From NCBI GenBank assembly GCA_903884815.1, contig CAISGE010000062.1, positions 17 to 64,016 on the forward strand: a stretch of 64,000 bases of DNA, given 5' to 3'. The translations under genes and the position numbers were made by a program. Below are positions 1-27,466 of this stretch, one piece after another (within the stretch, counting starts at the first letter, position 1; each line of letters begins with the position of its first letter). Source of the stretch: Candidatus Omnitrophota bacterium. GTDB lineage: Bacteria > Omnitrophota > Omnitrophia > Omnitrophales > Aquincolibacteriaceae. Under the pieces are notes generated by a model. The model saw only the letters and a program-made list of their open reading frames with translations. It had not been told where the DNA came from and searched no databases.

Positions 1-8
1 CGGATCTT

Positions 9-3000
9 TTGTCCGCGCTTCCTGGTTTTAAGACCGGGGAACTCACGACCGTGAGTTTTGTGATCGATGAGAACGTGGTTCCTGCCGGGACGAGCGGCAA
101 GGTGACTGTGGACACGATGAACCTGAAGTATATCCCCAGCGTGAATCCCAACCTGGGGTCGACAACGGCGAGTACTTTGCCTCTCTTTTCGGATCTGATC
201 GCGTTTCAAAGTAAAGCACCAGATCCCACCGCAATCGCAAATGTGACGGCTCTTTCAGCCAACCGGTTCAACTTGCTTTTCACTGTCGCAAACGAGGGGA
301 GCTACGGTGGAACTGCCAGCGTTTATACGGAAGCGCACGATTTCACTGCGCTGAGTCATTTGGTGCTTGGCCTGAGATTGTCCGCGGGGAGTGGTGATGT
401 TTTTCTCGAGCTCCAGGATTCTACGGGGGCAAAAGGGAGCGTTCGTTTGACCGGGGTGAATGGGACCCTAGGTTTCTACGACGTGGCTTTAACGGAATTC
501 ACAAATTACTCGAATGTGAATCTTTCCAAAATCTCCAATGTCAATCTCGTGGTCACGTATGATTCTATGTCCGCGTCGGCACGCACGGCTACAACCCTTG
601 AAGTTACTCTTGCAAATCAGCCGTTCGTGACGAACGTTCCGTGGGATCCGACAGCGACGATCAATGACATTTCTCTTCTCCCGCAGTTCAAGAATCTTGT
701 GGCATTCGGGAGCAAGACACCTGCGCCTACCGGGGTGGCAACGGCGACGCCGTTTACGGCAACCCGTTTTAACCTTAATTACAACGTGTTGAATGGCGGC
801 AGCTATGTCGGGAGTATCAGCACCTATGATGATTTTTCGACACCGGCCATAGAATCCATACCCCTTAGTCTGACAAAGCTCGTGCTTGGTCTGCGCCTGC
901 AGTCCGGAGGTGGGGCTGTGAAGATCATTGTGGAAGATGCCTCTACTCCTGGGAACAAAGCGGCTGTTCTCCTCACGGATGTCACGACGACAGAGAAATT
1001 CTATACCATCGATAAGGCCCTTTTTGCGGGCATTGATTGGTCGAAGGTGAGGAATATCATTGTCCAGGTTGAGTCCAAAGATGTTTCGGAAAAGATCGGC
1101 GTGCTGGAAGTGCGTTTCGGGAACAATTACTTTATCCCCGGGGTCATCACGGGGACGACTTATAATCCCGCTGCGTTGACCTCTCTCCCGTTCTTTCCGG
1201 CGCTTCTTGCGGGTTCAGCCAATTCTGCCGCGGGTGAGGCCAAGCCAACGATTACCATGACGCCGAATTCGTCCAGCGAGTTCGAGTATCAGTACGATCT
1301 CTCGCATGGACTTTCCGGATTCACCTTTGTTTCAATCGCAAGGACAGGGTCGCTGGTGTATCGGTTTCCGACCAATCAATATGTCTTTGCGGCCAAAGGC
1401 AGTGCGGGAGAGCGGATTCAGGTGGAGATCAAGGATCCTGACAACTGTGGTACCGCGGCCGGGTGCGATACGGCGGTTTATACGATCGAGTTGACTTCGG
1501 ACTATCAGAATTTCGTGCTGGATCTTCCGGCGAATATCGACCGAACGAGGATCAAGGAAGTTGTTTTTGTCCAGACCGCCAATTTGGGGTCGCCGCTGTT
1601 GAATGATTTTGTGAAGATCCAGACGACGGGATTGAAGACAGTGGTCAATCCTTTGCCGACGGATCTCCAGGCAATTCAAACGACGCTGGCCACGCGAGGT
1701 ATCGGTTATTTTGATCCTAATGCCATAGATTCGGGGATCGATCCTGTCACACATTTCCCGTACGATAATATTACGGATGGTGTGGCCAAAAAACAAACTC
1801 AGCCGACGCTGATCGGATTCTATCTTCAAATCCTCGGGGATGTGGTGCTGAAAGCTCTCAACAACGGCATGGACCAGGCGCATGCGCTTGCCGAGATTCA
1901 GACCGTATTGACCAATCTTCTTTCCGCTCAGGCTCAATATGGTTGGGCTCCTCCCGGGCAAACCGTCAAGGGTCTGATTCCCTGGTTTGATCTTGGAACT
2001 ACCGGCATTACGAAAGCGTCCACGGATAAAGTTGCTCTCGGGGACAACGCGAATTTGGCGCAGAGTTTGGCCGTCATGGTCGGCGCGCTGAAAAATTCGG
2101 GGCTGACCGGGACGAATCTGACAACGGCACAGTCTATCGCCGCCAAGGTCGAACAATTTCTCGATAACCAGAGAGTGGGTTATGAGAAGTTCGTAGATAC
2201 CTCCAAGGGGCAATTCTATGGCGATGTTAGCACCGTGACAGGAGTGTTTTCAAATCACATTGATCGCCTGGCCAATGAATTCCGTGGAGCGATCGCGTTC
2301 CTTATGGTTCGATATCCGACCTTACCGAAAAAGACAAGTGATGGCTCCTCGGTCTGGGACAATCTCGAGGTCGTGACGAATGACAGCTATGTGGATCGTA
2401 ACGGGGATACCATCACGAACCTTGCGGCATGGGATGGCGGCGCTTTTCAGACTTTCTGGCCGTCACTCAGAAATAATGAAATGGATTTTATCGGGTTCCG
2501 GAACGCCCTTTACAATCAGCTCGTCACGCAGTTGGACTATGCGTATCAGAACCGTATCCCCGGCATTTTGTCAGCCAGCGCGCGACCCGACAATAACGCT
2601 TATGAAGGCGATATCGGGATACCGCAGATCGCTGAAGAGAACATGAATCACCCGGCTGGGTCAAATCTGCTTCTGGCCGATGTCGGTTCCACCTATGCTC
2701 TGGCTGCGGCGATGAATGTGGATAACTACGCTGTCTTGGGTTGGTTGGATACGATCGACTTTTTGTACGGGGTTAATGGCTCTTTCAAGTTTCTCGTGTC
2801 GGATTTTATCGGGACCTTTGATGCCAACTCTTTTAAGGGGAACGGGCTGGCGGATGGTTGGGATCAGGGGAAACTTACTCCCACACCTGCTACTCCGGAG
2901 GCTTGGCGCGATGCTCTCAATCAGATCCTGCCGGTAAGAATGCGCACCACGGATTATCAAAGTATTCAATCCAATTCAACGATTCTGGCCAAACTCGACG

Positions 3001-4301
3001 CGGAAGCCAAAGGATTGCTCACCAAGGCGCTCATTTCGCCCGCGGTCGACATGACGGTATCTGAGCTGGAAGTTTTGAACAGACGGATCATCGAGGCCGT
3101 TTATCCTCAACTGGTAGAAAAGGCTCACTCCTACGGTTTCTATGATTCAGCTCGGTCTGCCAGCGAGATTTCCTCGAGCTACGTCGGGATCGATGTGGCG
3201 TCGACAGTTCTTGGCCTGTCGGGCAAGGGAGGCGCGGATTTCTCGGCTTATTTGACGGATAAAGGCTGGACGGCAGCCTACAACAAGCTTTACGACGATA
3301 AGAGCCATCTCCTAATGGGAATTACCCGGACAGACACGACGGTTCCCGTTGCGCCTGAGTTTCCGGACCGTTCTTTCGCGGTGTTCAGTAATCTCTCGTC
3401 CCAGGGAGTGATCAATAATTTTCTGCCGACCACGACGCAGCCCTACGGGATACGTCTTGCCTACACCGATTTGAAAGGCGTCGACAGTGGTTATTTCTGG
3501 AAATTTGATCAAGCCTATAACGCCACGGCGAATCAGCTGATCATCAACTATTCGGCGCCTGTGACGCCGCAGAGTGTAAGGCTCGAGTTCAAGGATGCCG
3601 CGGGGTTGGTGCTTTATCAGACGTCCATAATGCTTCAGGATAAGGCCACGTTCGCGCGTCTCATGATCGATCTGCCGAACTTGGCGATCCTGAGCCAGGT
3701 CAAGGAGCTTGATCTTGTAGTGGATCCCCAGGAAGGCGGTGCCGCTCAAGGGGATTTCACGATCCATGCGATTGACTTCCAGCATGTGCCGTCCGCACCG
3801 GTGGTGCCGCTTAGCGTGGTGCCAAGTCCGGCCGTGGTCACAGTATTGCCTGTGAATGACGCTACCGTTCCGGTTGCTGGCGTTCCGGAAGTTGTGGGGA
3901 CATCTCCCAATGACGTGGTGGCACATACGCCGGGTACGAACATTACGGATCTCCATTTTGATCTGAGGCAGCCCAACGCTATTGCCGCGATCGTTCTGAA
4001 TTTCGATCCAAATCTCAAGGGGAATAGTATCGATCTTTCCGCGATCCCGAATCTGATCTTTGGGATCAGTTCGGCAGTGGCGATGAATATCCAAATCGAA
4101 ATTGAAGATACCAAGGGAAATACCTACAGAACCTCGCATTCGGACATTGTGGCGTCGGGATATTACAAGTTTCTGACGTCCCTGGCGTTTGGGCGGGTGG
4201 ATCTGAGCCACGTGAAGGCTATTAAATTTGGCGTGGATCAGTATTCCGTGACAACTCCCACGGAAGGGGATCTGCAGCTTGAGATCGGCGGCTTGTCCTA
4301 G
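9..4301 (+). CDS. Giant (>1430 aa, 5'-truncated by window edge) secreted/surface multi-domain protein; several ~120-aa beta-rich repeat modules (CBM/Ig-like) at both ends flanking a central (alpha/alpha)-barrel-like glycoside-hydrolase-like (glucoamylase-like) region
   Basis: Single uninterrupted ORF in frame from the window start. Internal repeat modules share the motif L(S/T)(H/K)LVLGLRL..G.G. The central segment (DPVTHFPYDNITDG...WDGGAFQTFWP...) resembles glucoamylase-like GH folds. There is no homology to cytoplasmic enzymes. Confidence 0.55.
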   Translation: MSALPGFKTGELTTVSFVIDENVVPAGTSGKVTVDTMNLKYIPSVNPNLGSTTASTLPLFSDLIAFQSKAPDPTAIANVTALSANRFNLLFTVANEGSYGGTASVYTEAHDFTALSHLVLGLRLSAGSGDVFLELQDSTGAKGSVRLTGVNGTLGFYDVALTEFTNYSNVNLSKISNVNLVVTYDSMSASARTATTLEVTLANQPFVTNVPWDPTATINDISLLPQFKNLVAFGSKTPAPTGVATATPFTATRFNLNYNVLNGGSYVGSISTYDDFSTPAIESIPLSLTKLVLGLRLQSGGGAVKIIVEDASTPGNKAAVLLTDVTTTEKFYTIDKALFAGIDWSKVRNIIVQVESKDVSEKIGVLEVRFGNNYFIPGVITGTTYNPAALTSLPFFPALLAGSANSAAGEAKPTITMTPNSSSEFEYQYDLSHGLSGFTFVSIARTGSLVYRFPTNQYVFAAKGSAGERIQVEIKDPDNCGTAAGCDTAVYTIELTSDYQNFVLDLPANIDRTRIKEVVFVQTANLGSPLLNDFVKIQTTGLKTVVNPLPTDLQAIQTTLATRGIGYFDPNAIDSGIDPVTHFPYDNITDGVAKKQTQPTLIGFYLQILGDVVLKALNNGMDQAHALAEIQTVLTNLLSAQAQYGWAPPGQTVKGLIPWFDLGTTGITKASTDKVALGDNANLAQSLAVMVGALKNSGLTGTNLTTAQSIAAKVEQFLDNQRVGYEKFVDTSKGQFYGDVSTVTGVFSNHIDRLANEFRGAIAFLMVRYPTLPKKTSDGSSVWDNLEVVTNDSYVDRNGDTITNLAAWDGGAFQTFWPSLRNNEMDFIGFRNALYNQLVTQLDYAYQNRIPGILSASARPDNNAYEGDIGIPQIAEENMNHPAGSNLLLADVGSTYALAAAMNVDNYAVLGWLDTIDFLYGVNGSFKFLVSDFIGTFDANSFKGNGLADGWDQGKLTPTPATPEAWRDALNQILPVRMRTTDYQSIQSNSTILAKLDAEAKGLLTKALISPAVDMTVSELEVLNRRIIEAVYPQLVEKAHSYGFYDSARSASEISSSYVGIDVASTVLGLSGKGGADFSAYLTDKGWTAAYNKLYDDKSHLLMGITRTDTTVPVAPEFPDRSFAVFSNLSSQGVINNFLPTTTQPYGIRLAYTDLKGVDSGYFWKFDQAYNATANQLIINYSAPVTPQSVRLEFKDAAGLVLYQTSIMLQDKATFARLMIDLPNLAILSQVKELDLVVDPQEGGAAQGDFTIHAIDFQHVPSAPVVPLSVVPSPAVVTVLPVNDATVPVAGVPEVVGTSPNDVVAHTPGTNITDLHFDLRQPNAIAAIVLNFDPNLKGNSIDLSAIPNLIFGISSAVAMNIQIEIEDTKGNTYRTSHSDIVASGYYKFLTSLAFGRVDLSHVKAIKFGVDQYSVTTPTEGDLQLEIGGLS

Positions 4302-4398
4302 CTTCCTCTCTTCGTTTCAATAAAGGTTGCTAGGGCTAGTCCAATTTTCGATTTAGAAATAAATGCGGTGAATTGGGCTTGTCCTAGCTTCCTCTCTT
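4291..4398. repeat. Two perfect 22-bp direct repeats (gcttgtcctagcttcctctctt) at 4291-4312 and 4377-4398; the first copy spans the stop codon of the giant gene
   Basis: Exact 22/22 match read directly in the sequence, 86 bp apart. Confidence 0.8.
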
Positions 4399-4589
4399 TT
4401 CGTAAGGGAATCGGATTTGCAATAATACCGGGTCAGGGTTACAATCCACTCACGATTTTTTTAAACACGGGGATGGAATGTATGGAAAACGAACCCGGTA
4501 TCCTCGATCTCATTGAGACTCTAAAGAGCAGTCAAACATCCCGCCCGGCGGGCTCCAGAGCGGTTGCAACCCCTATAGGGAGGTCCACC

Positions 4590-5456
4590 ATGAATAATCC
4601 CATCTCGGGACTCATCTTTTTCGCACTTCTCATCCTCGGTTTTCTTGTGGGCGCGCCGATTTTTATGGCGAATCAGGCCCTCGGGGGAATGCTGGGGGTG
4701 GGCTGGTTCTTTCTTTCCATGGTCATCGCCAATGGGGTTCAAATGGCGGCGCAATGGGAGAAGGGAGTGGTTTTTCAGCTTGGAAAATTCAGCAGAATCG
4801 CGGGGCCCGGACTTTTCTTTATTATTCCGGTGGTGGAGGAGGTTCGCAAGATCGATATGCGCGTTCTCACGATGGATATCCCGTCCCAGCAGGTGATCAC
4901 CAAGGACAATGTGCCCGTGAAGATCAATGGCGTGATCTTTTTTAAAGTCGATGATCCCGCGAACGCGATCATTAAAGTGCAGGATTATCGTTACGCGATC
5001 TCGCAGTACTCCCAGACCTCGCTTCGTGACGTCATCGGTCAGATGACGCTCGATCAGCTTCTGACGGAACGGGAAGAGATCGGCAAAAAGATCGAGGCGA
5101 ATGTGGAAAAAGACACCGAAGCCTGGGGACTTGAAGTGACAGGCATCCGGATCCAGGATATTGATATGCCGGAAGAGCTTAAGAAGATGATGTCCCGTCA
5201 AGCCTCGGCGGAACGGGAAAAGCGCGCGACGATCACGAAGGCGGAAGGCGATCGCGATGCCTCGGCGAACCTTGCGCTAGCGGCGAAGATCATGGCGGAA
5301 AGTCCAGGGGCGATGCAACTCAGGACGCTTCAGACGATTGATGGTCTTGGGCCTACGGCTTCGAACACCGTGGTGCTTGCGGTGCCTATCAATATCATGG
5401 ATATCTTGGATCAGACCAGCGCGTTCTTGAAGACCAAGACGAACAAACCGACTTAG
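4590..5456 (+). CDS. SPFH/band-7 (stomatin/prohibitin/QmcA-like) membrane protein
   Basis: N-terminal TM helix followed by a typical SPFH core (VFQLGKF...GPGLFFIIP...IPSQQVITKDNV...) and an Ala/Glu-rich coiled tail. Start chosen at the ATG at 4590, preceded by GGGAGG; the upstream in-frame extension looks non-coding. Confidence 0.8.
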   Translation: MNNPISGLIFFALLILGFLVGAPIFMANQALGGMLGVGWFFLSMVIANGVQMAAQWEKGVVFQLGKFSRIAGPGLFFIIPVVEEVRKIDMRVLTMDIPSQQVITKDNVPVKINGVIFFKVDDPANAIIKVQDYRYAISQYSQTSLRDVIGQMTLDQLLTEREEIGKKIEANVEKDTEAWGLEVTGIRIQDIDMPEELKKMMSRQASAEREKRATITKAEGDRDASANLALAAKIMAESPGAMQLRTLQTIDGLGPTASNTVVLAVPINIMDILDQTSAFLKTKTNKPT

Positions 5457-5820
5457 GCGGCGGGACTTTGGGGCAAAAAAAAGCCCCAACAATGAGTTCG
5501 AGAATCACGCTTTATCTAGCAATTTTATAGTATAAAAAACCGCATTGCTCGTCAGGCGAAATCCTCTAGGCTGTGGCTGTTATGCTCACGTTGAGGCTTT
5601 TAGCTCTTGGGAGGAACGGCTTCGAATCCTGCCTTGCTTCGCCGTTCCTCAATGTCAAAGAATCATGTATAATACCCCTCAATTGAAGGGTAGCTGTCCC
5701 AGGCTCATCTGTCAAGGTTCGTAAGCCTAATCAGTTAAAAGACTTAGGAAAGCAGTTTTTGACAATAAATGGGGTTGTTGTTAGGATAACTCGCAATGGT
5801 GTTCAAAATCTGAAAAGGTT

Positions 5821-7035
5821 GTGACGATGCACAGTACGACAGAAGAGATTATCCAGGATATTCGTGAGGGTCGCATGGTCATCATGACCGATGATGAGAC
5901 CCGTGAGAACGAAGGCGACATTGTTTTTGCCGCTTCCAAGACGACTCCTGAGATGGTCAATTTCATGATGAAATACGCGCGCGGGCTGATTTGTGTTCCT
6001 ATGGCCGCAGATCGCATTCAGGTTTTAGGGCTTGATCAGATGAATCCGAATCCTGAAGACTCCATGAAAACCGCGTTCACGGTATCGGTGGACGCGCGAG
6101 TCGGCATTACCACAGGGATTTCCGCCTATGATCGGAATCGAACCATTGAACTTCTCGCCGACTCCCGGACGCACCGCGAAGACCTGGTGATCCCCGGGCA
6201 TATTTTTCCGCTCAAGGCTAAGCAGGGAGGCGTGCTTCGCCGTGCCGGCCATACCGAAGCCGCGGTAGATCTGGCAGAGGCCGCCGGGTTGCCATCCGCG
6301 GCGGTAATCTGCGAGATCGTTAATGACGATGGGAAAATGGCGAGACTTGCGGATCTCCTGGAATTCGCAAAGGCGCATAAGCTGAAGATCGGAACGATAC
6401 AGGATCTCATCGCTTACCGGACCAAGGCCAACAAGCTTGTGAAGAAAATAAGCGAGGCGCAGCTGCCGACTAAATTCGGCGTTTGGACCATCAAGATCTA
6501 TGAGTCGGTCCTTGACGGCGCGCAGCATGTCGCGTTGATCCAGGGGAAGGTCGGGGATAGTCCGGCGCTCGTGCGTGTCCACTCGGAGTGTTTTACCGGG
6601 GATGTGCTGAGTTCTCTGCGCTGTGATTGTCAGGATCAGCTTGCCGCAGCGATGAAGATGATTCAAAAAGAAGGTGCGGGCGTGATCCTCTATATGCGTC
6701 AGGAAGGTCGTGGAATCGGTCTCGCGAACAAGATCAAGGCGTACGGGCTTCAGGACGATCAAGGGCTCGACACGGTCCAGGCAAATGAGGCGCTCGGTTT
6801 TAAGCCGGATCTTCGCGATTACGGGATCGGGGCCCAGATCCTTCACGACCTTGGGCTTTCCAAGCTTCGTCTGATGACCAATAATCCCCGCAAGATCGTG
6901 GGACTGGAAGGGTATGGTCTTCAGATCGTCGAGCGGCTTCCGATCGTTATCCCCTCGAACCCTACGAACGCGAAATACCTTCAGACGAAAATAGATAAAT
7001 TCGGCCATCTTTTCGGTAAGGAGACGAACCCATGA
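5821..7035 (+). CDS. ribBA: Bifunctional 3,4-dihydroxy-2-butanone-4-phosphate synthase / GTP cyclohydrolase II
   Basis: N-terminal DHBP synthase motifs (MTDDETRENEGD) and C-terminal GTP cyclohydrolase II (HSECFTGDV...CDCQDQL...YMRQEGRGIGL). Confidence 0.92.
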   Translation: MTMHSTTEEIIQDIREGRMVIMTDDETRENEGDIVFAASKTTPEMVNFMMKYARGLICVPMAADRIQVLGLDQMNPNPEDSMKTAFTVSVDARVGITTGISAYDRNRTIELLADSRTHREDLVIPGHIFPLKAKQGGVLRRAGHTEAAVDLAEAAGLPSAAVICEIVNDDGKMARLADLLEFAKAHKLKIGTIQDLIAYRTKANKLVKKISEAQLPTKFGVWTIKIYESVLDGAQHVALIQGKVGDSPALVRVHSECFTGDVLSSLRCDCQDQLAAAMKMIQKEGAGVILYMRQEGRGIGLANKIKAYGLQDDQGLDTVQANEALGFKPDLRDYGIGAQILHDLGLSKLRLMTNNPRKIVGLEGYGLQIVERLPIVIPSNPTNAKYLQTKIDKFGHLFGKETNP

Positions 7036-7535
7036 CGGTTTATCACGGCAAGATCCTCGCTGGAAATAAGAAGTTCGGCATCGTTGTTTCGAGATTTAAT
7101 GATTTTATCACCTCTCGGTTGCTCAACGGGGCGGTGACGACCCTCAAGAAAGCCGGAGCGCCGGACAAGAACATCAAGATCGTCTGGGTCCCGGGCGGCC
7201 TTGAAGTTCCTTTTTTCTGTAAAAAGTTGAAATCTCAAAAACATTGTGATGTGGTGATTGCTCTCAGCTGCGTGATCCGCGGGGGAACCTACCATTTTGA
7301 GTGCGTGTCGAATGAACTTACCCGCGGGATCAGCCAGGTGGCGCTCGAGACCGGGACGCCGATCGCGTCGGGGATCCTGACGGTTGAGAATCTGGAACAG
7401 GCGATTGACCGGGCCGGGTTGAAGCATGGCAATAAGGGCGAGCAAGCCGCTTTGGCGGCGCTTGAGATCGCAAGTTTGAATGACCAGTTATCCGGCAAGG
7501 GAAAGCCTTCGAAGGTTCGTGCTAAGAAGAAGTAG
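7032..7535 (+). CDS. ribH: 6,7-dimethyl-8-ribityllumazine synthase
   Basis: Family signature (GIVVSRFNDFITSRLL...VWVPGGLEVPF); start overlaps the ribBA stop (ATGA). Confidence 0.9.
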   Translation: MTVYHGKILAGNKKFGIVVSRFNDFITSRLLNGAVTTLKKAGAPDKNIKIVWVPGGLEVPFFCKKLKSQKHCDVVIALSCVIRGGTYHFECVSNELTRGISQVALETGTPIASGILTVENLEQAIDRAGLKHGNKGEQAALAALEIASLNDQLSGKGKPSKVRAKKK

Positions 7536-7567
7536 GATCTTTCGACAAAAAAACGGTAAAGGAAAAC

Positions 7568-8017
7568 ATGCAACGTAAACGAACCCAATCCCGTGAGTGC
7601 GCGCTCCAGATCCTTTATCAGCATGAGATGAATCCCGAGCCCATGCCGGAGATCCTGAAATTGTTTTGGTCCCAGCAGGATGAAGTTTTCTCCGATGAAG
7701 TCCGGACTTTTGCGGAAAAACTCGCGCTGGGGGTTATGGAAAATCAGCTTGAGATCGACCAGGTCCTGGGGAAGTACGCGGATAACTGGGAACTTTCGCG
7801 TATGGCCATGATCGACCGGAATGTGATGCGCCTCGCGACTTACGAACTGCTTTATCTGGCCGACGTTCCGCCTAAAGTCACGCTGAATGAGGCTGTGAAT
7901 CTTGCCAAGAAGTTTTCGCAGGAAGAATCCGGCAAGTTCGTCAACGGCATCCTCGATAAGATCAACCACACCGAAAAGCCAAAAAATCCCAAGGACCATG
8001 ACCCTTCCGTCGCATGA
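7568..8017 (+). CDS. nusB: Transcription antitermination factor NusB
   Basis: NusB-like sequence (RECALQILYQ...DRNVMRLATYELLY). The position next to ribH is a widely conserved linkage. Confidence 0.85.
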   Translation: MQRKRTQSRECALQILYQHEMNPEPMPEILKLFWSQQDEVFSDEVRTFAEKLALGVMENQLEIDQVLGKYADNWELSRMAMIDRNVMRLATYELLYLADVPPKVTLNEAVNLAKKFSQEESGKFVNGILDKINHTEKPKNPKDHDPSVA

Positions 8018-9122
8018 ATTTTGGATGAAGCGCGCGATCGCTTTGGCGGAAAAAGGACGTTTTAGCGTCAGTCCTAATCCCATGGTTGGAGCCTGTGTCG
8101 TCCTAAAGGGGAAACTGGTGGGCTCCGGCTTTCATGAGAAATTTGGTGCCCCTCACGCTGAACCCAACGCCCTCGCCCGGGCCGGAAACAAAACTAAGGG
8201 CGCCACGCTTTACGTGACACTGGAACCCTGTGCCACCTGGCAAAAAACCCCGCCCTGCGCTCCTATGATCCTCAAAAAAGGCATACGGGAAGTCGTGATC
8301 GGTTGTCTGGATCCGAATCCTCTCAATCGTGGGAAAGGGGTTCGCTTTCTCCGCCGTAACGGAATTGCCGTGACAACAGGAATCCTAGAGCTGGAGGTTC
8401 GAAAGCAGAACGAAGGCTTCTTCAAGTGCATGACCGATAAGCGGCCCTTTGTGACACTTAAAATGGCGCAAACGCTGGACGGTAAAATCGCGACACACCG
8501 GGGACTTTCTCGATGGATCTCTTCGCCGCCGTCGCGTGAATTTGTTCACGAGCTTCGGGCCCAGCACGATGCTGTCCTGGTGGGCAAGAACACCTTTGAG
8601 AAGGATGATCCGAGGCTTACAGTTCCGAAACGTTCCCGTTCCCTTGAATCGGGGAAGCCCTGGAAAATCATCATGATCTCCGCAACAGGGTGGTCACGAA
8701 AGGCGCGGATTTTTGAGGATGAACGGCTGACGGTCCTTGCGTTCCGGGAGAAGGATCTTGGTGCGATCGCGAAAAAAGCAGAAGCTCAAAAAGGATCTCT
8801 AATGCTTTTACCGGTCAAAGAGAGACACGGAAAGCTGGAAGTGCGCGATCTTCTCAAGAAACTTGCGGCGATCGGTGTGACGCGGTTGCTTGTCGAAGGC
8901 GGCGGAGAGCTGGCATGGTCTTTTCTCGAGGCGGGATGCGTGGATCGGGCTTTTTGGATCATCGCGCCCAAGATCTTCGGGGGACGGAATGCAAAGACCT
9001 CCGTGGAGGGCTCGGGCGTCAAGATACCTGACCAGGCATTTTTGTTTCTACCTGAAAAGGTAACGCGTTCAGGAAAAGATTGGATCTTCTCAGGGAATTT
9101 TAAGAAAAATAAAATAAAGTAA
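7998..9122 (+). CDS. ribD: Riboflavin biosynthesis deaminase/reductase
   Basis: CMP/dCMP-type deaminase zinc motifs (HAEPNAL...TLEPCA...C) and a C-terminal RibD reductase domain. The ATG at 7998 is preferred over the ORF-track ATG at 7902, which would overlap nusB by 116 nt. Confidence 0.85.
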   Translation: MTLPSHEFWMKRAIALAEKGRFSVSPNPMVGACVVLKGKLVGSGFHEKFGAPHAEPNALARAGNKTKGATLYVTLEPCATWQKTPPCAPMILKKGIREVVIGCLDPNPLNRGKGVRFLRRNGIAVTTGILELEVRKQNEGFFKCMTDKRPFVTLKMAQTLDGKIATHRGLSRWISSPPSREFVHELRAQHDAVLVGKNTFEKDDPRLTVPKRSRSLESGKPWKIIMISATGWSRKARIFEDERLTVLAFREKDLGAIAKKAEAQKGSLMLLPVKERHGKLEVRDLLKKLAAIGVTRLLVEGGGELAWSFLEAGCVDRAFWIIAPKIFGGRNAKTSVEGSGVKIPDQAFLFLPEKVTRSGKDWIFSGNFKKNKIK

Positions 9123-9131
9123 GGAGCGACT

Positions 9132-9803
9132 ATGTTCACGGGCATTATTGAGAATCAAGGCATCGTTAAAAAAAGGGAAGATCGCGGCGGGCAGGTCCGC
9201 TTCGGGTTCCGGTTCAGGAAAAAAGAAAAAGGACTCCGTGTGGGAGAAAGCATCATGGTCTCCGGGGTATGTTTGACAGCCGTTCGCGTGAGTCCCGAGG
9301 GTTTTGAAGCAGATGTGGTGCATCAGACGCTTCAAGCGACGACGCTTGGAGCGCTTAAGATGGGCGGTGTCGTCAATCTTGAGAGGTCGCTCAAGGTGGG
9401 AGATGGGATGGGCGGGCATTTTGTGACCGGTCATATCGACGGCCGCGGCACGATTTGTAAGATTGAAAAGAGAAAAAAGAATACGACCTTGTTCATTAAA
9501 GCTTCCAAGGATATAATCGCGCTGCTCGCGGACAAAGGCTCGGTTGCTTGTGACGGAATCAGCCTGACCGTCCAAAAAGTTCGCGGGGGAATTTTCCAAA
9601 TTGCTGTGATCCCTCACACGCTCAAGGTGACGACGTTGGGGATCAAGCGAGTGGGCTATGAAGTCAATCTCGAAGTGGATATTGTGGCGCGCTATCTTCA
9701 AATGTGTTTTGCTAAAGAAAAGTCCCGGAAAACTTTTTCATCGCGCGCGATACTCCGGGAACTTCTCCAGCAGGGGCGTGAGTGGAAAAAAGATTTGAAT
9801 TGA
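9132..9803 (+). CDS. ribE: Riboflavin synthase alpha chain
   Basis: Begins MFTGIIE..G, the classic riboflavin synthase N-terminus, with a duplicated lumazine-binding half (HFVTGHIDG); AGGAG RBS present. Confidence 0.85.
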   Translation: MFTGIIENQGIVKKREDRGGQVRFGFRFRKKEKGLRVGESIMVSGVCLTAVRVSPEGFEADVVHQTLQATTLGALKMGGVVNLERSLKVGDGMGGHFVTGHIDGRGTICKIEKRKKNTTLFIKASKDIIALLADKGSVACDGISLTVQKVRGGIFQIAVIPHTLKVTTLGIKRVGYEVNLEVDIVARYLQMCFAKEKSRKTFSSRAILRELLQQGREWKKDLN

Positions 9804-10186
9804 GTGCGTCGTCGGAAGTCCTTTCTCCGTTCCGTAAGGAGTTCCGCGGAATTCTGGGACAAGAGGGATGGGAGAAAAAGACGACCGAAGAGATCCTTCT
9901 GTGTGTTGATGAAGCCCTGACCAATATCATCCGGCACGCCTACCAGGGAAATCCCGGGAAGATGACGGTCTTGGTGCAGGTGAATCATGACAAGGTTGAG
10001 ATCGTGATGGAGGATCAGGGGAAGAAGTTCGATCCGACGCAAGTGCCTTCGCCGGAACTTCCGCGTGAAAAGCCGGGCGGTCTCGGAGTTCATTTTATCA
10101 GGACAATCATGGATCAGATGATCTATGATGCTCATTACCTTCAGGGAAACCGGCTTCGTTTGATCAAACATAGGCGTAAAATTTGA
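9782..10186 (+). CDS. Anti-sigma regulatory factor, RsbW/SpoIIAB-like serine kinase (HATPase_c)
   Basis: GTG start. The N-box EALTNIIRHAY, the segment DQGKKFDP and the G-box PGGLGVHFIRTIMD are typical of partner-switching kinases. Confidence 0.7.
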   Translation: MEKRFELSASSEVLSPFRKEFRGILGQEGWEKKTTEEILLCVDEALTNIIRHAYQGNPGKMTVLVQVNHDKVEIVMEDQGKKFDPTQVPSPELPREKPGGLGVHFIRTIMDQMIYDAHYLQGNRLRLIKHRRKI

Positions 10187-10572: not shown

Positions 10573-11373
10573 ATGAACGAATTTTTAGGAAGTATCGGTC
10601 AGAGCGTGCTTTTTGTTTTAGCCGGAGTCGCGCGCTTGTGGGCACTGGGAGCCGCGGTCGTCGGCTTCACCCTCCAGTCCTTTTTAAATAAGAAGATTAT
10701 TCCGCGCGAAGTCTTTTTCCGTCAGCTGGTCCTGATTGGCATCGATTCTACGGCGATAGTCTCCCTCGTGGGCGCTTCGGTTGGGACGGTTCTGGCGTTG
10801 CAAGCGGCCTATTCTCTGAAGACCTTTGGGGCGCTCATGTACACAGGAAGCCTTGTGTGCGTGGCCATGGCCCGCGAACTGGGTCCCTTGATCGCCGCGA
10901 TCGTGATCTCTGGCCGCATCGGCGCGCGCATGGCGGCCGAGATCGGTACCATGATGGTCCAGGAAGAAGTGGATGCTCTTACCACCATGGGGATTAATCC
11001 CATCCGGTTTCTCGTCGCGCCGCGTGTTCTCGCGCTGGCCTGCATGCTCCCGTGTCTGACGGTCATCGTGGATATTGTGGGGATGATCGGGGGTTGGGCG
11101 ATCGGCGTGACAGGTCTCGGCATCAATTCTACTCTTTATATCGCGAAGAGTATCGAGGCGCTTTGTCTCAAAGATATCTATACCGGTCTTCTGAAGAGTA
11201 TTATTTTCAGCATTCTTATCGCGCTGGTGAGTTGCCATCAGGGGCTTTCGGTTTCGGGTGGCGCGGACGCGGTGGGGAAAGCCACCACGCAGGCGGTCGT
11301 GATCTCGATCGTGTTGATCATTGTGGTGGACTGTTTGGCGACGGCGGTTATTTATTACGCCTTGCCCACGTAA
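10573..11373 (+). CDS. mlaE: Mla/Ttg2-type ABC transporter permease
   Basis: Multi-TM protein with MlaE family motifs (ARELGPLIAAIVISGRIGARMAAEIGTMMVQEEVDAL); start at the ATG at 10573. Confidence 0.85.
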   Translation: MNEFLGSIGQSVLFVLAGVARLWALGAAVVGFTLQSFLNKKIIPREVFFRQLVLIGIDSTAIVSLVGASVGTVLALQAAYSLKTFGALMYTGSLVCVAMARELGPLIAAIVISGRIGARMAAEIGTMMVQEEVDALTTMGINPIRFLVAPRVLALACMLPCLTVIVDIVGMIGGWAIGVTGLGINSTLYIAKSIEALCLKDIYTGLLKSIIFSILIALVSCHQGLSVSGGADAVGKATTQAVVISIVLIIVVDCLATAVIYYALPT

Positions 11374-13791: not shown

Positions 13792-15363
13792 ATGCTTACT
13801 GGTACTAAAAAAGTTCAGCCGGGTGGGCAAGACTGGTTTGTGGTCCTGAACCCCCTCAAGAGCGAATTGGAACGCAATAAGATCGCCCGCGAGATCGCCA
13901 AGGCTTTTGGTCTTCCCGTGGATGAAGCGTTCGATCTTGTAGCCAATACCCCCATTATCCTGATCGACAATCTTCTTTACGCGACAGCGCTTCAGATAAA
14001 ACAGTATTTCCGCAACTCTCAGACGGATATCGCGGTCAGTAACGATAGCCTCCTGAAGAGGCGCTGCTACCGGACCGTGTGGCCCACATCCCCGAGCCTT
14101 GCTTTTCTCCATCATATGGAAGCCTCGACTCCTTCGGCAAAAGCAAATGAGTCGGAAAAGCTCGATCACGCCGAGGCAATTCAAGAGATACGTTCCTGGG
14201 TGCAGACCGAGGGCGTTTCTCCAGAGGGTGCCGAGAGGCATTCTTCCCAGAACGGCAGGAGTCATCACGCTCCGCGTCATTTCCGGAGTATCCTCGAAGA
14301 TGATCAGGAAAGACTGCTCAAGGAGAGCGTGGGAATGAAGGAAAGTATGGGGCAACTCCGCAAGGCTCTGGAGAAAGCCCAGGAGGAAGTTGCGGAAAAG
14401 GAGAAGGCCGTGCGGGCCAGTGAGATCGCGAAAACGCAGAAAGAAAAGGAAGTTCAGGAGCTTCACAATCTGGTGGCTCATGCGGAAGAAAAATACGAAC
14501 TTCTTCGGGAAGAATTCCGGGAGACCCGCCAGTACTTCGAGGAGAAGCTTGGTTCCCAGGATCAGAAATCGGAGGAGTTCCTGAAGCAGATCGAAGAACG
14601 TGATCTCGCCCAAAAGGAGATCTTGCAGGAGAAGCAGGCCCTTCTGAAAAGTTTTCACGCTGTGAAAAGCGATCTTCAACGTGCGAAGGATGAGCAAGAG
14701 CAGTCGCGTCGCGAATGGGAGAGCCAGGCGTCCCAGTTTCGAAGAGAACTTGAAAATCATAAGACCGTTGTGGAGAGCCTTCACGCCAAGATCCAGAATC
14801 TGGAGGAAGGCAAGAAGATCGTGCAATCGAGTGAAACTCGTTTGCTCCAGGAATTAGAGCTTCAGACCCAGCAGGCCAAGCAGTGGGAGCAGAAATCCTC
14901 CGAGTTTGAAAAGGAGATCCGGCGGCTCCGCGGCTCATTTGAGGATCAGCAGAAGACCTGGCAAGTGCGTCTCGCGCAGCTTGAGGCCCGGGAGATGGAT
15001 CTTGAGAATGCGCGAAAGCAGATCCGTGAGCTTTATACAGAATTGGACCAGCGTGAGGCTGTGCAGAAAAAGGCACAGCTGCAGGAGCAACTGGCTTCCT
15101 GGGAGTTGCGGCTCAAGCAGGTGGTGAAGCATCAGGAAAGGATCGAGTCCGAGATCCGTGAGCGCGAAGAGGAAATGCGCAAGCTTCTTGAGGAGCAGGA
15201 GAAGATCGAGAGGGAAGTGATCGAAGGCAAACAGGCCCAGCGACACCTTGCTGAAAAAATCAAACATGAAGGTCCTCACGGAGAGCCGCAAAAGCCCGAA
15301 AAAAACGCCGATTCTTCCGCCCTTCATCCTTCTCAGTCGCGGCCCGAGGTTGTGGATGATTGA
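13792..15363 (+). CDS. Long coiled-coil protein with a ~110-aa globular N-terminal domain (possibly ribosomal L7/L12-CTD-like fold)
   Basis: About 400 aa of heptad-rich E/K/Q/R sequence follow an N-terminal domain (FVVLNPLKSELERNKIAREIAKAFGLPVDEAFDLV). The antisense 364-aa ORF is leucine-rich, as expected opposite a coiled coil. Confidence 0.5.
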   Translation: MLTGTKKVQPGGQDWFVVLNPLKSELERNKIAREIAKAFGLPVDEAFDLVANTPIILIDNLLYATALQIKQYFRNSQTDIAVSNDSLLKRRCYRTVWPTSPSLAFLHHMEASTPSAKANESEKLDHAEAIQEIRSWVQTEGVSPEGAERHSSQNGRSHHAPRHFRSILEDDQERLLKESVGMKESMGQLRKALEKAQEEVAEKEKAVRASEIAKTQKEKEVQELHNLVAHAEEKYELLREEFRETRQYFEEKLGSQDQKSEEFLKQIEERDLAQKEILQEKQALLKSFHAVKSDLQRAKDEQEQSRREWESQASQFRRELENHKTVVESLHAKIQNLEEGKKIVQSSETRLLQELELQTQQAKQWEQKSSEFEKEIRRLRGSFEDQQKTWQVRLAQLEAREMDLENARKQIRELYTELDQREAVQKKAQLQEQLASWELRLKQVVKHQERIESEIREREEEMRKLLEEQEKIEREVIEGKQAQRHLAEKIKHEGPHGEPQKPEKNADSSALHPSQSRPEVVDD

Positions 15364-25020: not shown

Positions 25021-26121
25021 TTGAGAATTATCGCCATCGCGAATCAAAAAGGCGGATGTGGAAAGACTACGACCAGCATTAATTTCTCGGCTTGTCTGAA
25101 TTTTCTTCAGAAGAAAGTGCTCGTGGTCGATCTGGATCCGCAGGGGCATTCCACTTGTGGGTTGGGTGTCAAAACTCAGAGGGGCATGCTGACCCTTTAT
25201 GACCTTTTGAGTCCTCTTCAGAGCGTGACGCCTTCTCTTTCCCAGGTCATCCAAAACCTTCGGACGGATTTTGATCTCCTTCCTTGTAACGCAAGCCTGA
25301 ACGCGATCGAAGAAGAATTCGGGTTTATGCCCAATTATCACCTTAAGCTTCGGGATCTTCTGGCCAGGATTTCTGAAGACCCTCGCCGATACGATTTTGT
25401 GGTGCTGGATTGTCCTCCGAATCTTGGCATGCTCACCTGGAACGCTCTGAATGCGGCCGATGAGATCATTGTTCCCGTGGAGCCCTCCTTTTTTTCGCTG
25501 CATGGCCTCGCCAAGATCTCGGAGACTCTTCAGATCGTGAATCGAAGCCGGGAGACGCCTTTGGCGGTTCACGCGCTTCTGACGCTTTTTAACTCCGAGG
25601 TGAATTTCTCCCATGAAATCTACGATGAAGTTCGCGCCCACTTCAAAGACAGGCTCTTTACAACGATCATTCACGAACATGTCAGTCTCAAAGAGGCCGC
25701 CGCGGCGGGGCAGAGTATTGTTCAGTATGGGCCACAATCACAAGCCTTTCAGGACTACCTGAATCTGGCGGTGGAATATCTGGAACGGGACTGGAATCGC
25801 AAACTCCCGGAAAAGGAGTTGGGTTGGGAGCAGGTTTATCAAAACCATTTTGGGCCGCGGCAGGTTTCGGACGGGATCCTCTTTCAGTTTTTGAGCAAGA
25901 CAGCGTCGTCTGTGGAGATCGCCGGGGATTTTAATCATTGGGTCGCAGAGCCTCTCTTGCGGCGCAATCAAGACGGGCTTTGGCAGAAGGTTATTCCGGT
26001 GGAGCCTAAAACGTTTCGATATAAGTTTATCGTGGATGGGGAGTGGCAGGTTGATCCTAGTCAACCCATGCAGCGAGAAAATGCTTATGGCGGCGTTGAT
26101 TCTTACGTGGAGTTATCCTGA
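25021..26121 (+). CDS. ParA/Soj-family P-loop ATPase fused to a C-terminal AMPK-beta-type glycogen-binding domain (CBM48)
   Basis: TTG start with an AGGAG RBS. Deviant Walker A (NQKGGCGKTTTSINFSACL) and Walker B (VLDCPPNL). The C-terminal ~85 aa (VEIAGDFNHW...YKFIVDGEWQVDPSQP) align closely to the AMPK beta GBD/CBM48 (SGSFNNW...YKFFVDGQWTHDPSEP). Confidence 0.8.
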   Translation: MRIIAIANQKGGCGKTTTSINFSACLNFLQKKVLVVDLDPQGHSTCGLGVKTQRGMLTLYDLLSPLQSVTPSLSQVIQNLRTDFDLLPCNASLNAIEEEFGFMPNYHLKLRDLLARISEDPRRYDFVVLDCPPNLGMLTWNALNAADEIIVPVEPSFFSLHGLAKISETLQIVNRSRETPLAVHALLTLFNSEVNFSHEIYDEVRAHFKDRLFTTIIHEHVSLKEAAAAGQSIVQYGPQSQAFQDYLNLAVEYLERDWNRKLPEKELGWEQVYQNHFGPRQVSDGILFQFLSKTASSVEIAGDFNHWVAEPLLRRNQDGLWQKVIPVEPKTFRYKFIVDGEWQVDPSQPMQRENAYGGVDSYVELS

Positions 26122-26933
26122 TGAATGAGGATGCGAAAAAATTGGTGCGTGGGCTGAAGGATCTTTCGCCGCTTTTCGGTGTTGTCCCTGAAGAAGTTGT
26201 AGCCCGCAGATCTCCGGAAGTTCAAATTTTAGGGGTCTCAAGCCCGGACTGTGAAGGCGATTCTTTGTTCCTTAACACATTTTTTGCTTCGCAGCTCCTT
26301 CTGTCGGAGAAAGCCTGCTCTCTGGTCAGCGTTTTATCCCGGTGTTCCAAGAATTTGCCAAGGGAGGGAGAAGTTTCTCCTGAATTGTTCGGGGAGCACC
26401 TTCAGCGCTACTCCCTTTATTGGGATGAGCTCCGAGATCTTGTAGGGGGGGCTTCCTCGGGAAAATCGGGGGGGGTGTTGCAGAGTCGGGATATTTTTTT
26501 GGATTTTGAGTACCGGCATTTGCTCCACTTTGAGGGGGCCATTTGTCTTCTGGATAAGTGGGTTCTACTTTTGAAGCCGAACGCTGAATCTCTGACTGAG
26601 GGTTATAAAATGATGAAGGTTGGGCATTCCCTTAATCCGCAGCTTGAGTTTTGTATCGTATTGGAAGGGAGGGCTGAGGAGGCGAAAGGGGAGATGCTCT
26701 TTAAAAGATTCTCGGATTTCACTATGAGGTATCTTGATATTCAGTTGGGTTGGCTTGGTTGGATGGATCTTGCGGACCCCGCCCGTCATTTCTCGTCAGC
26801 GCTCCATGTGGAGCCTCTGCGCTTTCGATCCTGGGACCCGAAGCCCAGCTTGCAAAAGTTTGTCCTCGCCCATTGGGTTGAATCCCTAGAGAAGAAGATG
26901 GCTGTTGGAATTTCCGAGGGGGGCTCGCGATGA
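26121..26933 (+). CDS. Hypothetical protein, possibly a degenerate ParA/MinD-fold pseudo-ATPase
   Basis: Translationally coupled to the upstream gene (ATGA overlap). The N-terminal segment ILGVSSPDCEGDS sits where a Walker A would be but lacks lysines; assignment is tentative. Confidence 0.4.
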   Translation: MNEDAKKLVRGLKDLSPLFGVVPEEVVARRSPEVQILGVSSPDCEGDSLFLNTFFASQLLLSEKACSLVSVLSRCSKNLPREGEVSPELFGEHLQRYSLYWDELRDLVGGASSGKSGGVLQSRDIFLDFEYRHLLHFEGAICLLDKWVLLLKPNAESLTEGYKMMKVGHSLNPQLEFCIVLEGRAEEAKGEMLFKRFSDFTMRYLDIQLGWLGWMDLADPARHFSSALHVEPLRFRSWDPKPSLQKFVLAHWVESLEKKMAVGISEGGSR

Positions 26934-27466
26934 TCGCCGCCCCCGAACGCATTTTTCGCCAGGAGATCTTTCAATCGATCCGCTCCTCCATCCAGGAACT
27001 TCATGCGGATAAAGTGATCCTTGAGGACGTGAATGGAGCCCCCTACCTCTTTAAAAGCAAAGATGCGCAGGTTTGGGCGCGGATTTTTTACAGGTCCATG
27101 CGGGATTATTCCCTTGTGGAACTTCAGCAGGAGATCAGGAAGCTCTGGGTGCTAATGCCGAGTAGTGCGGTACTCTATCTTTTTTATCCAGAATTGGACC
27201 GTCAGCAGATCCTCAAAATGAACGGCTTTAGCGATCGTTTGAGTTTTTTTGAATATGCGGGACTTTCTGGCGTGGCGCATGAACAGAGGGACATCAAAAT
27301 CTGTAAGTGGATGCCCTCCTGGATTCAAGAGGGGATTTCCCCTCGAGAGGGTGTGGTTGCTCCTCTGGTGCCGGTTTCGCCCGCCAGCTTTTTGAGAATT
27401 TCTTGTCTGACACCGCAGGAGATCCAGGGCCTTACGGAGTTGTCTTTGGCTTTATCCCGGGTCTGA
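26930..27466 (+). CDS. Hypothetical protein
   Basis: Translationally coupled (ATGA); no recognised domain. Confidence 0.4.
   Translation: MIAAPERIFRQEIFQSIRSSIQELHADKVILEDVNGAPYLFKSKDAQVWARIFYRSMRDYSLVELQQEIRKLWVLMPSSAVLYLFYPELDRQQILKMNGFSDRLSFFEYAGLSGVAHEQRDIKICKWMPSWIQEGISPREGVVAPLVPVSPASFLRISCLTPQEIQGLTELSLALSRV

Follow-up and report, generated by a model that had tools for sequence, protein, structure and literature searches.

Here we have analysed the first 4.3 kb of a 64,000-nucleotide stretch of DNA (the window; GenBank assembly GCA_903884815.1, contig CAISGE010000062.1) from a Candidatus Omnitrophota bacterium. The Omnitrophota are an uncultured, ultra-small and probably host-dependent phylum. 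Our results show that this region carries the larger part of a gene for a real, previously unannotated enzyme, the protein P0001, in which a known enzyme clan, the β-1,2-glucanase (SGL) clan, is combined with a style of protein known for the Omnitrophota. The subfamily, its multi-modular context, a family of repeats resembling carbohydrate-binding modules (CBMs), the fusion to a domain with a JAMM motif and a domain nested in the catalytic barrel are new, and all of them are unannotated. We propose that P0001 would be a secreted 2,128-residue modular glycoside hydrolase (GH), of which the window holds the C-terminal two thirds. Its barrel would cleave β-1,2-glucan chains endolytically and with inversion, a glutamate protonating the scissile oxygen via the substrate's own 3-OH at subsite +2, as in the SGL clan, and seven β-sandwich modules would keep the enzyme attached to the surface of a polymeric glycan. 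Taken as a whole (a secreted inverting endo-β-1,2-glucanase with multivalent glycan binding, a nested domain and a rearranged 3' end), this is the reading towards which we lean, with some reserve.

The gene and its barrel domain

In frame 3 of the plus strand, no stop codon is found from nt 3 to the TAG at 4299-4301, and the first TTG lies at nt 9. A search of 5.8 billion proteins recovered P0001, a complete protein encoded on a second contig (L001), which spans the entire window translation and differs from it, over residues 697-2128, by one Gly/Ala exchange only. L001 contributes the missing 5' part of the gene, which starts at its position 10001, together with 10 kb upstream. The gene therefore runs off the 5' edge of the window, as the original prediction had it from the lack of an N-terminus. 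A third assembly, a metagenome of the Joint Genome Institute (JGI), shows 99.88% identity to window positions 1-5997 (L008). Frameshifts introduced by assembly were looked for, and the frame is intact in all three assemblies; given the complete homologue and their agreement, the open reading frame (ORF) is free of frameshifts and assembly artefacts. Between the window and L001, 7 of 14,301 aligned nucleotides differ, all seven inside the large gene, six of them synonymous and one non-synonymous, and the ORF is a real gene under purifying selection. These differences cluster at window positions 1592-2663 (~1.1 kb, the barrel region), with none in the ~10 kb downstream, perhaps as a result of recombination between strains or of a diversity that is raised locally in the large gene. 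Annotation by family databases is silent: Pfam has no family at E≤1 in either the window protein or P0001, and NCBIfam has no match in the large protein.

The barrel consists of ~435 aa plus an insertion of ~114 aa. Its AlphaFold2 model is a confident (α/α)6 barrel (predicted local distance difference test, pLDDT, 85.9; predicted template-modelling score, pTM, 0.83), and when it was compared by Foldseek with the PDB all 20 matches at E≤1e-3 were SGL-clan enzymes. The top match is the GH192 structure 8XUJ (EeSGL1; E 3.5e-17, template-modelling score, TM, 0.82 on the target), followed by GH162, GH189, GH144 and GH194 structures. 8XUJ, whose protein EeSGL1 is an endo-β-1,2-glucanase of 'Group 1', now GH192 (PMC12102758), was also the one real match of a phmmer search of the PDB (chain A, E 2.5e-17). 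Model and fold search thus agree with the central (α/α)6 glycoside-hydrolase-like barrel that had been predicted. GH15, GH144 and DUF3131 had been named as candidates for it, and here the fold class and the GH144-containing clan stand, whereas the nearest family proved to be GH192: no GH15 structure is found among the best 50 fold matches of the barrel, the large protein has no Pfam DUF3131 or 'glycoamylase' match at E≤1, and the resemblance to GH144 is at the level of the fold (E about 1e-8).

Among 1.84 billion cluster representatives, searched exhaustively with HMMER, the barrel has 221 relatives at E≤1e-3, mostly in proteins of 1,000-8,000 aa; those with a name are from Omnitrophota. The family alignment and profile were built from 26 homologues. 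This profile matches EeSGL1 with an E-value of 1e-53 over chain residues 45-442 of 447, and GH189 (8WY1) with 1.6e-15 over profile positions 155-373 only, while the GH144 structures 4QT9 and 3EU8 give E-values of 0.08-0.13. By BLASTP, the barrel shares 28% identity with EeSGL1 across 354 aa. Judged from these comparisons, the barrel appears closest to GH192 and then to GH189, and the ranking of the PDB folds (GH192, then GH162) agrees with a placement on the GH192/GH162 branch. We regard the barrel fold and membership of the SGL clan (GH-S) as highly probable.

The catalytic residues are kept. Asp1377 and Glu1455 (Table 1) align with D149, the candidate general base, and E221, the general acid, of EeSGL1 (the chain index of 8XUJ is the native EeSGL1 numbering plus 1, so that chain residue 222 is E221), and mutants of EeSGL1 in either residue retain <0.1% activity (PMC12102758). 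The SGL clan is defined by a conserved Glu, Phe and Tyr, namely E239 in XcSGL (E262 in TfSGL, E221 in EeSGL1), F286 and Y367 of XcSGL (PMC12102758). In P0001, the Phe and Gln of WDGGAFQ are invariant in the 26 homologues, the Phe aligning with that of WDGAYFQ in EeSGL1, and the Tyr of NNAYEG, equally invariant, aligns with NDEYRP in EeSGL1. On this alignment, the clan Phe and Tyr positions are very probably conserved in the barrel as well.

Architecture: repeat modules, N-terminal domain and nested domain

P0001 is built, in order, of a putative signal peptide, a Ser/Thr-rich linker, a JAMM-motif domain, five CBM-like modules, the (α/α)6 barrel and two further CBM-like modules; the order signal peptide, JAMM-motif domain, CBM-like modules, SGL-clan barrel and two CBM-like modules is conserved. 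Three of the features described here were not part of the original prediction: the domain nested in the barrel, the hairpin structure around the 3' duplication and, beyond the window, the JAMM-motif domain at the N-terminus.

An iterated hidden Markov model (HMM), seeded on one module and run over the family proteins, finds seven copies of a ~175-aa unit in P0001, each with an E-value between 1e-21 and 1e-36 once the fourth round is reached. Five complete copies and the tail of a sixth lie in the window, and the C-terminus of the protein is the last strand of module 7, with no recognisable anchor motif. The at least five copies first noticed are therefore present, although the unit is ~175 aa instead of ~120 aa and the literal LVLGLR motif occurs in two copies only; self-BLASTP for repeats, sensitive settings included, gave no off-diagonal matches. 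The model of module 4, from a 36-sequence alignment, is a β-sandwich (pLDDT 93.7) whose best Foldseek match in the PDB is CBM11 (1V0A, E 2.2e-6, TM 0.54/0.58), then CBM30 (E about 1e-5), with CBM4, CBM16, CBM28, CBM29 and CBM61 further down. Of the earlier description as CBM/Ig-like, it is the first half that these folds uphold and the Ig-like half that falls away. Against Pfam at E≤10, the five window modules match no CBM family and give one chance-level unrelated match; Pfam CBM_11 reaches just E=0.13, in one relative. By their modelled fold, the repeats appear to be an unannotated, CBM-like family, whose members would bind glycans.

At the other end of the protein, the N-terminus reads MTRENNYFYQRRRTIPQRFLASFVILAFFFSQTMPTGFA|DIS, that is, RRR, then a hydrophobic stretch, then GFA|D. 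Read by eye, this is a basic n-region, a hydrophobic core and an A-x-A-like cleavage site, with a Ser/Thr-rich stretch behind it. It looks like a Sec signal peptide, so that P0001 would be secreted, which is in keeping with the secreted or cell-surface character expected of the protein beforehand. The domain that follows (P0001 ~215-390; L001 ~10643-11170, outside the window) recurs N-terminally in at least 17 other members of the family. The metal-binding and catalytic motif of JAMM/MPN+ proteins is E ... H-x-H-x(7-10)-S-x-x-D, and in an alignment of 13 members of the domain E62, H102 and D116 are invariant and H104, P112 and S113 near-invariant (HTHP...PSxxD). Pfam gives Prok-JAB in 3 of the 13 members (best E 0.0015) and Toxin-JAB1 (0.094), both below the curated cut-offs; a profile search of the PDB with the domain found no JAMM structure, and P0001 1-407 gave chance matches only when compared with the PDB by sequence. 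A comparable stretch, HTHH...PSDLD, is present in the giant ORF of another locus (L007). On the contig that encodes the relative P0004 (L013, ~5200-8000), the JAMM-motif domain lies in a separate 651-codon frame upstream of a 1,101-aa gene whose called start falls within a module; this split is either a frameshift or assembly error or a truncated gene call. The relative P0002 also begins mid-module.

The insertion in the barrel is a mostly helical nested domain, which lies between ...FLYGVNGS and YGFYDSARS, where close relatives read uninterrupted ...YLYGMNGTYGFYDSARS. It is absent from 80 of the 83 homologues aligned on both sides of this point (position 387/502 of the modelled domain), these being 98-124 residues shorter than the query between the flanking aligned stretches; the remaining three are also without it and carry a different, CBM-like insert in another loop. 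From this alignment, its presence within the barrel appears to be a property of this species only, in all three assemblies of which it is found. A ~135-aa CBM-like β module is nested between the barrel motifs PGxLSAS and GIxEIA in the relatives P0103, P0107, P0110 and P0007. Two different inserts in different loops mean that the barrel has accepted nested domains at least twice.

Stretches of ~115-125 aa with ~50% identity to the nested domain occur in unrelated proteins: a 2,958-aa membrane protein, a 7,010-aa protein, a MORN-repeat protein, a protein in which the domain stands straight after a VFNEP motif, a 589-aa protein with two copies, and P0143 (800 aa), where it lies between SPASM (190-251) and the radical-SAM core (427-561). 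The SPASM/radical-SAM order of P0143 is reversed from the usual one, as though the domain bridged two once-separate proteins. Scans of species-representative genomes gave six loci, five of them in metagenome-assembled genomes named Omnitrophota or Omnitrophica and all six in ORFs of >2,000 aa, and JGI metagenomes gave five loci, one of which is the large gene itself. No copy was found in viral contigs, and no other copy in the window or L001. A PDB profile search with the domain returned chance-level matches only, and Pfam gave no usable match. Its GNGLxDGWDQG motif may recall the bacterial calcium loops of thrombospondin type 3 and dockerin, a likeness that neither a model nor statistics bears out.

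Two candidate explanations of the nested domain, a recently active mobile element and an intein, were rejected because its copies are few and, at only 29-56% identity, old. Its DNA shows no terminal inverted repeats, target-site duplication or GC shift, and the insert runs (S)FKFLV...VEKAH(S) with a Tyr behind it, and has neither His-Asn nor a Pfam intein or Hint match. In our reading it is a helical domain, uncharacterised and confined to the phylum, that was recently nested in this lineage into a barrel loop, six residues ahead of the conserved YGFYD motif, and we infer that the enzyme is not destroyed by it but gains a function in binding or regulation. That it could be a new kind of mobile coding element, an in-frame 'hopping' cassette restricted to the phylum that enters unrelated coding sequences (the glycosidase barrel here, and elsewhere a MORN-repeat protein, a SPASM/radical-SAM site, a GH-like protein straight after its NEP motif, and giant proteins of the coiled-coil and membrane types), and not a product of ordinary domain shuffling, has in our view only a slim chance of being right.

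Table 1. Features of the large gene and its 3' region. Residue n of P0001 corresponds to window nt 3+3(n-697).
Feature	P0001 residues	Window position (nt)	Strand	Basis
Coding sequence: last 1,432 codons and stop of the 2,128-aa, predicted secreted multi-domain protein	697-2128	3..4301	+	
CBM-like module 1 (upstream of the window)	390-572			iterated HMM
CBM-like module 2 (C-terminal tail in the window)	567-747	3..155	+	iterated HMM
CBM-like module 3, contains LVLGLRLSAGSG	742-911	138..647	+	iterated HMM
CBM-like module 4	906-1085	630..1169	+	iterated HMM, structure model, fold search
CBM-like module 5	1080-1253	1152..1673	+	iterated HMM
Barrel region including the nested domain		1659..3314	+	PDB sequence search, homologue alignment, model, fold search
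Asp1377 (GAC) in LGDNANLA; aligns with EeSGL1 D149 (candidate general base)	1377	2043..2045	+	invariant in 26 homologues
Glu1455 (GAA) in DRLANEFRG; aligns with EeSGL1 E221 (general acid, ANESR), the clan-defining Glu	1455	2277..2279	+	invariant in 26 homologues
Nested, mostly helical domain, motifs GNGLADGWDQGKL and LNRRIIEAVYP	1625-1738 (boundaries ±2 aa)	2787..3128 (approx.)	+	
CBM-like module 6	1798-1968	3306..3818	+	iterated HMM
CBM-like module 7	1962-2128	3798..4298	+	iterated HMM
23-bp direct repeat, copy 1 (GGCTTGTCCTAGCTTCCTCTCTT); last two codons and TAG stop; 5' arm of hairpin A		4290..4312	+	
Inverted arm (GCTAGGGCTAGTCCAATT...); pairs with either repeat copy; unique in the window		4329..4347	+	
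23-bp direct repeat, copy 2; 3' arm of hairpin B		4376..4398	+	
Promoter-like TTGCAA-17-TACAAT ahead of the Band_7 gene (ATG 4482)		4417..4445	+	

Activity, substrate and alternative readings

With invariant catalytic residues and a gene under purifying selection, the barrel is probably a competent catalyst. Every SGL-clan member with demonstrated activity acts on β-1,2-glucan (PMC12102758), and for that reason, by analogy, β-1,2-glucan is the best single guess for its substrate, a guess that falls just short of what we would call probable. More tentatively still, and again by analogy, P0001 might serve to attack, or to hold on to, the envelope glycans of another cell, a role that is in line with published ideas on large Omnitrophota proteins and that we put forward as possible but doubtful.

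Several points weigh against the reading of P0001 as a secreted, multivalent endo-β-1,2-glucanase. The signal peptide was assigned by eye, and the CBM assignment is one of fold (TM ~0.55) without a sequence-family match. The nearest characterised enzyme is 28% identical; the residues that contact the substrate vary among SGL-clan families, and PgSGL4, of Group 4, is inactive on β-1,2-glucan (PMC12102758). In GH189, a retaining transglycosylase, the Asp position is the nucleophile (PMC12102758, Figure 8 legend), so that conserved residues alone leave the mechanism unfixed. The neighbourhood is one of housekeeping genes, without partner genes for β-1,2-glucan (GH94, GH3, sugar transporters). The nested domain lies, in the sequence, near a conserved active-site-proximal motif and could impair catalysis, and in its model only the helices of the C-terminal half reach a pLDDT of 70-83, the N-terminal half, without alignment depth, staying below 50.

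The low identity, the variable recognition residues with the inactivity of Group 4, and the missing utilisation genes could also be read as signs that the same fold and machinery act on something else, another β-glucan or a cell-envelope polysaccharide of a host or prey, and the large proteins of Omnitrophota are thought to target cell-surface polymers generally. We consider such a change of substrate somewhat unlikely, as all clan members with shown activity use β-1,2-glucan, the three clan-defining positions (the Glu, the Phe of WDGxxFQ and the Tyr) appear to be kept in P0001, and the match of the GH192 profile, at 1e-53, covers the whole domain. The second-best sequence match, GH189 (8WY1, 1.6e-15), is also a strong fold match, and with the conserved Asp at the position of the GH189 nucleophile (PMC12102758) it brings up a retaining β-1,2-glucanotransferase like the GH189 domain of cyclic glucan synthase, which would remodel or cyclise glucan. 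This is hardly credible, for the GH192 match is ~38 orders of magnitude stronger and spans the full domain, whereas that to GH189 is confined to part of the profile, and GH189 domains act in cytoplasmic synthases, whereas P0001 has an apparent signal peptide and CBM-like modules. Finally, the multivalent CBM-like architecture, the insertion adjoining a conserved active-site-proximal motif and the adhesion proposed for large Omnitrophota proteins would suit a non-catalytic adhesin, in which barrel and modules merely bind glycans and the nested domain has inactivated the enzyme. Yet the catalytic Asp and Glu and their surrounding motifs are intact here and invariant in the family, the barrel is modelled confidently around the insertion, and the variation between assemblies is mostly synonymous, which makes an adhesin very improbable.

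The 3' end, the surroundings and comparison with known systems

Two exact copies of a 23-bp sequence lie at the 3' end of the gene, where shuffled sequences are expected to hold 0.00 such duplications. The duplication at the stop codon and its distance of 86 bp had been noticed before, its length being 23 bp, from 4290 and 4376, and not 22 bp. Between the copies stands an inverted arm that can pair with either of them. With copy 1 it forms hairpin A (-21.4 kcal/mol, z -3.9), which includes the stop codon. Pairing with copy 2 gives hairpin B (-31.1 kcal/mol, z -6.0), behind which follows CUUCCUCUCUUUUCG, a U-rich tract. Since hairpin B is stable and a U-rich tract comes after it, it is terminator-like and looks like a terminator between the large gene and the Band_7 gene. 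A simple terminator scan of the 3' intergenic region called none, because the loop and stem of the hairpin exceed the limits of the scan, and Rfam had no match there. The direct-inverted-direct arrangement of the arms (window 4286-4404) yields two mutually exclusive hairpins, with a geometry like that of a translation-coupled attenuator; on the basis of the folding energies, it is a speculation that competition of the hairpins for one arm could exert a translation-coupled control of read-through.

In two related species, the orthologues end in ...GAGATCGGCGGCTTGCAATATCCC-stop (EIGGLQYP*), and the window ends in ...GAGATCGGCGGCTTGTCCTAG (EIGGLS*). The window diverges from them right after GGCTTG, exactly where the 23-bp repeat starts, and downstream of copy 2 the orthologous intergenic region can be aligned again. 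We suggest that a local duplication or template switch may have replaced the ancestral ...QYP* end by ...S*, leaving the terminator-like hairpin; the slippage or recombination first supposed at this end of the gene fits the comparison. The duplication could instead be a target-site duplication or the remnant of the attachment site of a mobile element, and there is an upstream flank, variable among relatives, that would supply one: directly upstream of the large gene, L001 carries two excisionase-like genes of the HTH_17 family and a tyrosine integrase (7753-9673), together with a tRNA-Leu and a partial tRNA copy. But no third copy of the 23-mer (≤3 mismatches) exists in the 64-kb window or in the 26-kb locus with its upstream region, the two copies are 86 bp apart with a 63-bp spacer that itself holds the inverted copy, related species keep the gene at the same place with respect to Band_7 and the rib genes, and the 23-mer is unrelated to the tRNA sequence. 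An origin from a mobile element is in our view scarcely tenable. As for the tRNA, ARAGORN places tRNA-Leu(taa) at L001 9389-9477, inside the called integrase ORF, and a 74-nt, 78%-identical partial copy of its 3' part follows 138 nt further on (9547-9620); the pair has the look of a scar left by an old integration at a tRNA gene.

Downstream of the large gene, the window carries a Band_7 gene, ribBA, ribH, nusB, ribD, ribE, an anti-sigma pair and Mla genes, and further on obg, proB/proA, nadD, CorC-type transporters, mraW, ftsI and ligA. In two related species, too, a large gene stands directly upstream of Band_7 and the rib operon, and the gene is therefore a stable chromosomal one and not the cargo of an island, the downstream flank being conserved in these species and the upstream flank not. 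Elsewhere in the window, an ORF at 25021-26118 (+) codes for a ParA/MinD-type ATPase (AAA_31, CbiA, BcsQ-like) fused to a C-terminal glycogen-binding module (AMPK1_CBM/CBM48), an unusual combination by which an ATPase of the partition type might be anchored to a polysaccharide granule. Three ORFs without a Pfam match at 1e-5 (13792-15360, 26121-26930 and 26930-27463, all on the plus strand; 523, 270 and 178 aa) sit in this otherwise well-annotated housekeeping stretch.

What do these findings add? The β-1,2-glucanase clan, whose newest families date from 2025 and consist of single-domain proteins of ~440 aa, now reaches ~200 clusters of large, multi-modular, predicted secreted proteins, concentrated in the Omnitrophota and invisible to Pfam and NCBIfam annotation. 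A new family of CBM-like repeats and a JAMM-motif domain fused to a glycosidase come with it, and the domain nested beside an active site is a natural 'with/without' experiment. If the substrate were β-1,2-glucan, Omnitrophota might direct the enzyme against the cyclic or periplasmic glucans of neighbouring Gram-negative cells, a hypothesis of feeding or attachment. Current understanding is not overturned by these results, which are a well-supported gain in annotation with one odd feature.

Among known systems, the 'Dockerin-type' and 'Archaeovorin' proteins (West-Roberts et al. 2023, bioRxiv 10.1101/2023.11.21.568195) belong to the same phylum and share with P0001 a long extracellular build and unannotated ~200-aa CBM-like repeats next to glycoside hydrolase and peptidase domains. 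Large Omnitrophota proteins of this kind, with such repeats and GH domains, have been proposed to bind and degrade cell-surface polymers, and the text of that report does not mention an SGL-clan barrel or a 'glucanase' (bioRxiv 10.1101/2023.11.21.568195). P0001 is at least 10 times smaller than the proteins of at least 30,000 aa sought there, and, unlike in the giant proteins, no transmembrane or SecA-like parts are found in the sequence recovered. With the Type B modules CBM11 (1V0A, 6R3M) and CBM30 (1WMX, 2C24), the repeats of P0001 share a ~170-aa β-sandwich or jelly-roll (Foldseek E 2e-6 to 6e-5, TM 0.5-0.58) and a place flanking a glycoside hydrolase, whereas the seven copies in tandem, which have diverged, make up a separate family without a CBM sequence match.

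The other families of the SGL clan, GH162 (TfSGL, 6IMU), GH189 (the transglycosylation domain of TiCGS, 8WY1), GH194 (PgSGL3, 8XUK) and GH144 (CpSGL, 5GZH; XcSGL, 8XUL; the Bacteroides 'putative glucoamylases' 3EU8 and 4QT9), have in common with the barrel the fold and the conserved general-acid Glu, although similarity in sequence is weaker (GH189, 1.6e-15) or not significant (GH144, about 0.1). The closest known enzymes are those of GH192, EeSGL1 (8XUJ), PgSGL1 and PgSGL2 (Nakajima et al. 2025, PMC12102758). The characterised ones are single-domain proteins of ~440 aa from marine gammaproteobacteria (PMC12102758), whereas P0001, whose activity is predicted only, has 2,128 aa, seven CBM-like modules, a JAMM-motif domain and a nested domain of 114 aa. 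What P0001 shares with GH192 is the fold, a match over the full domain, the catalytic Asp and Glu, and the motifs WDGxxFQ and YGxYD.

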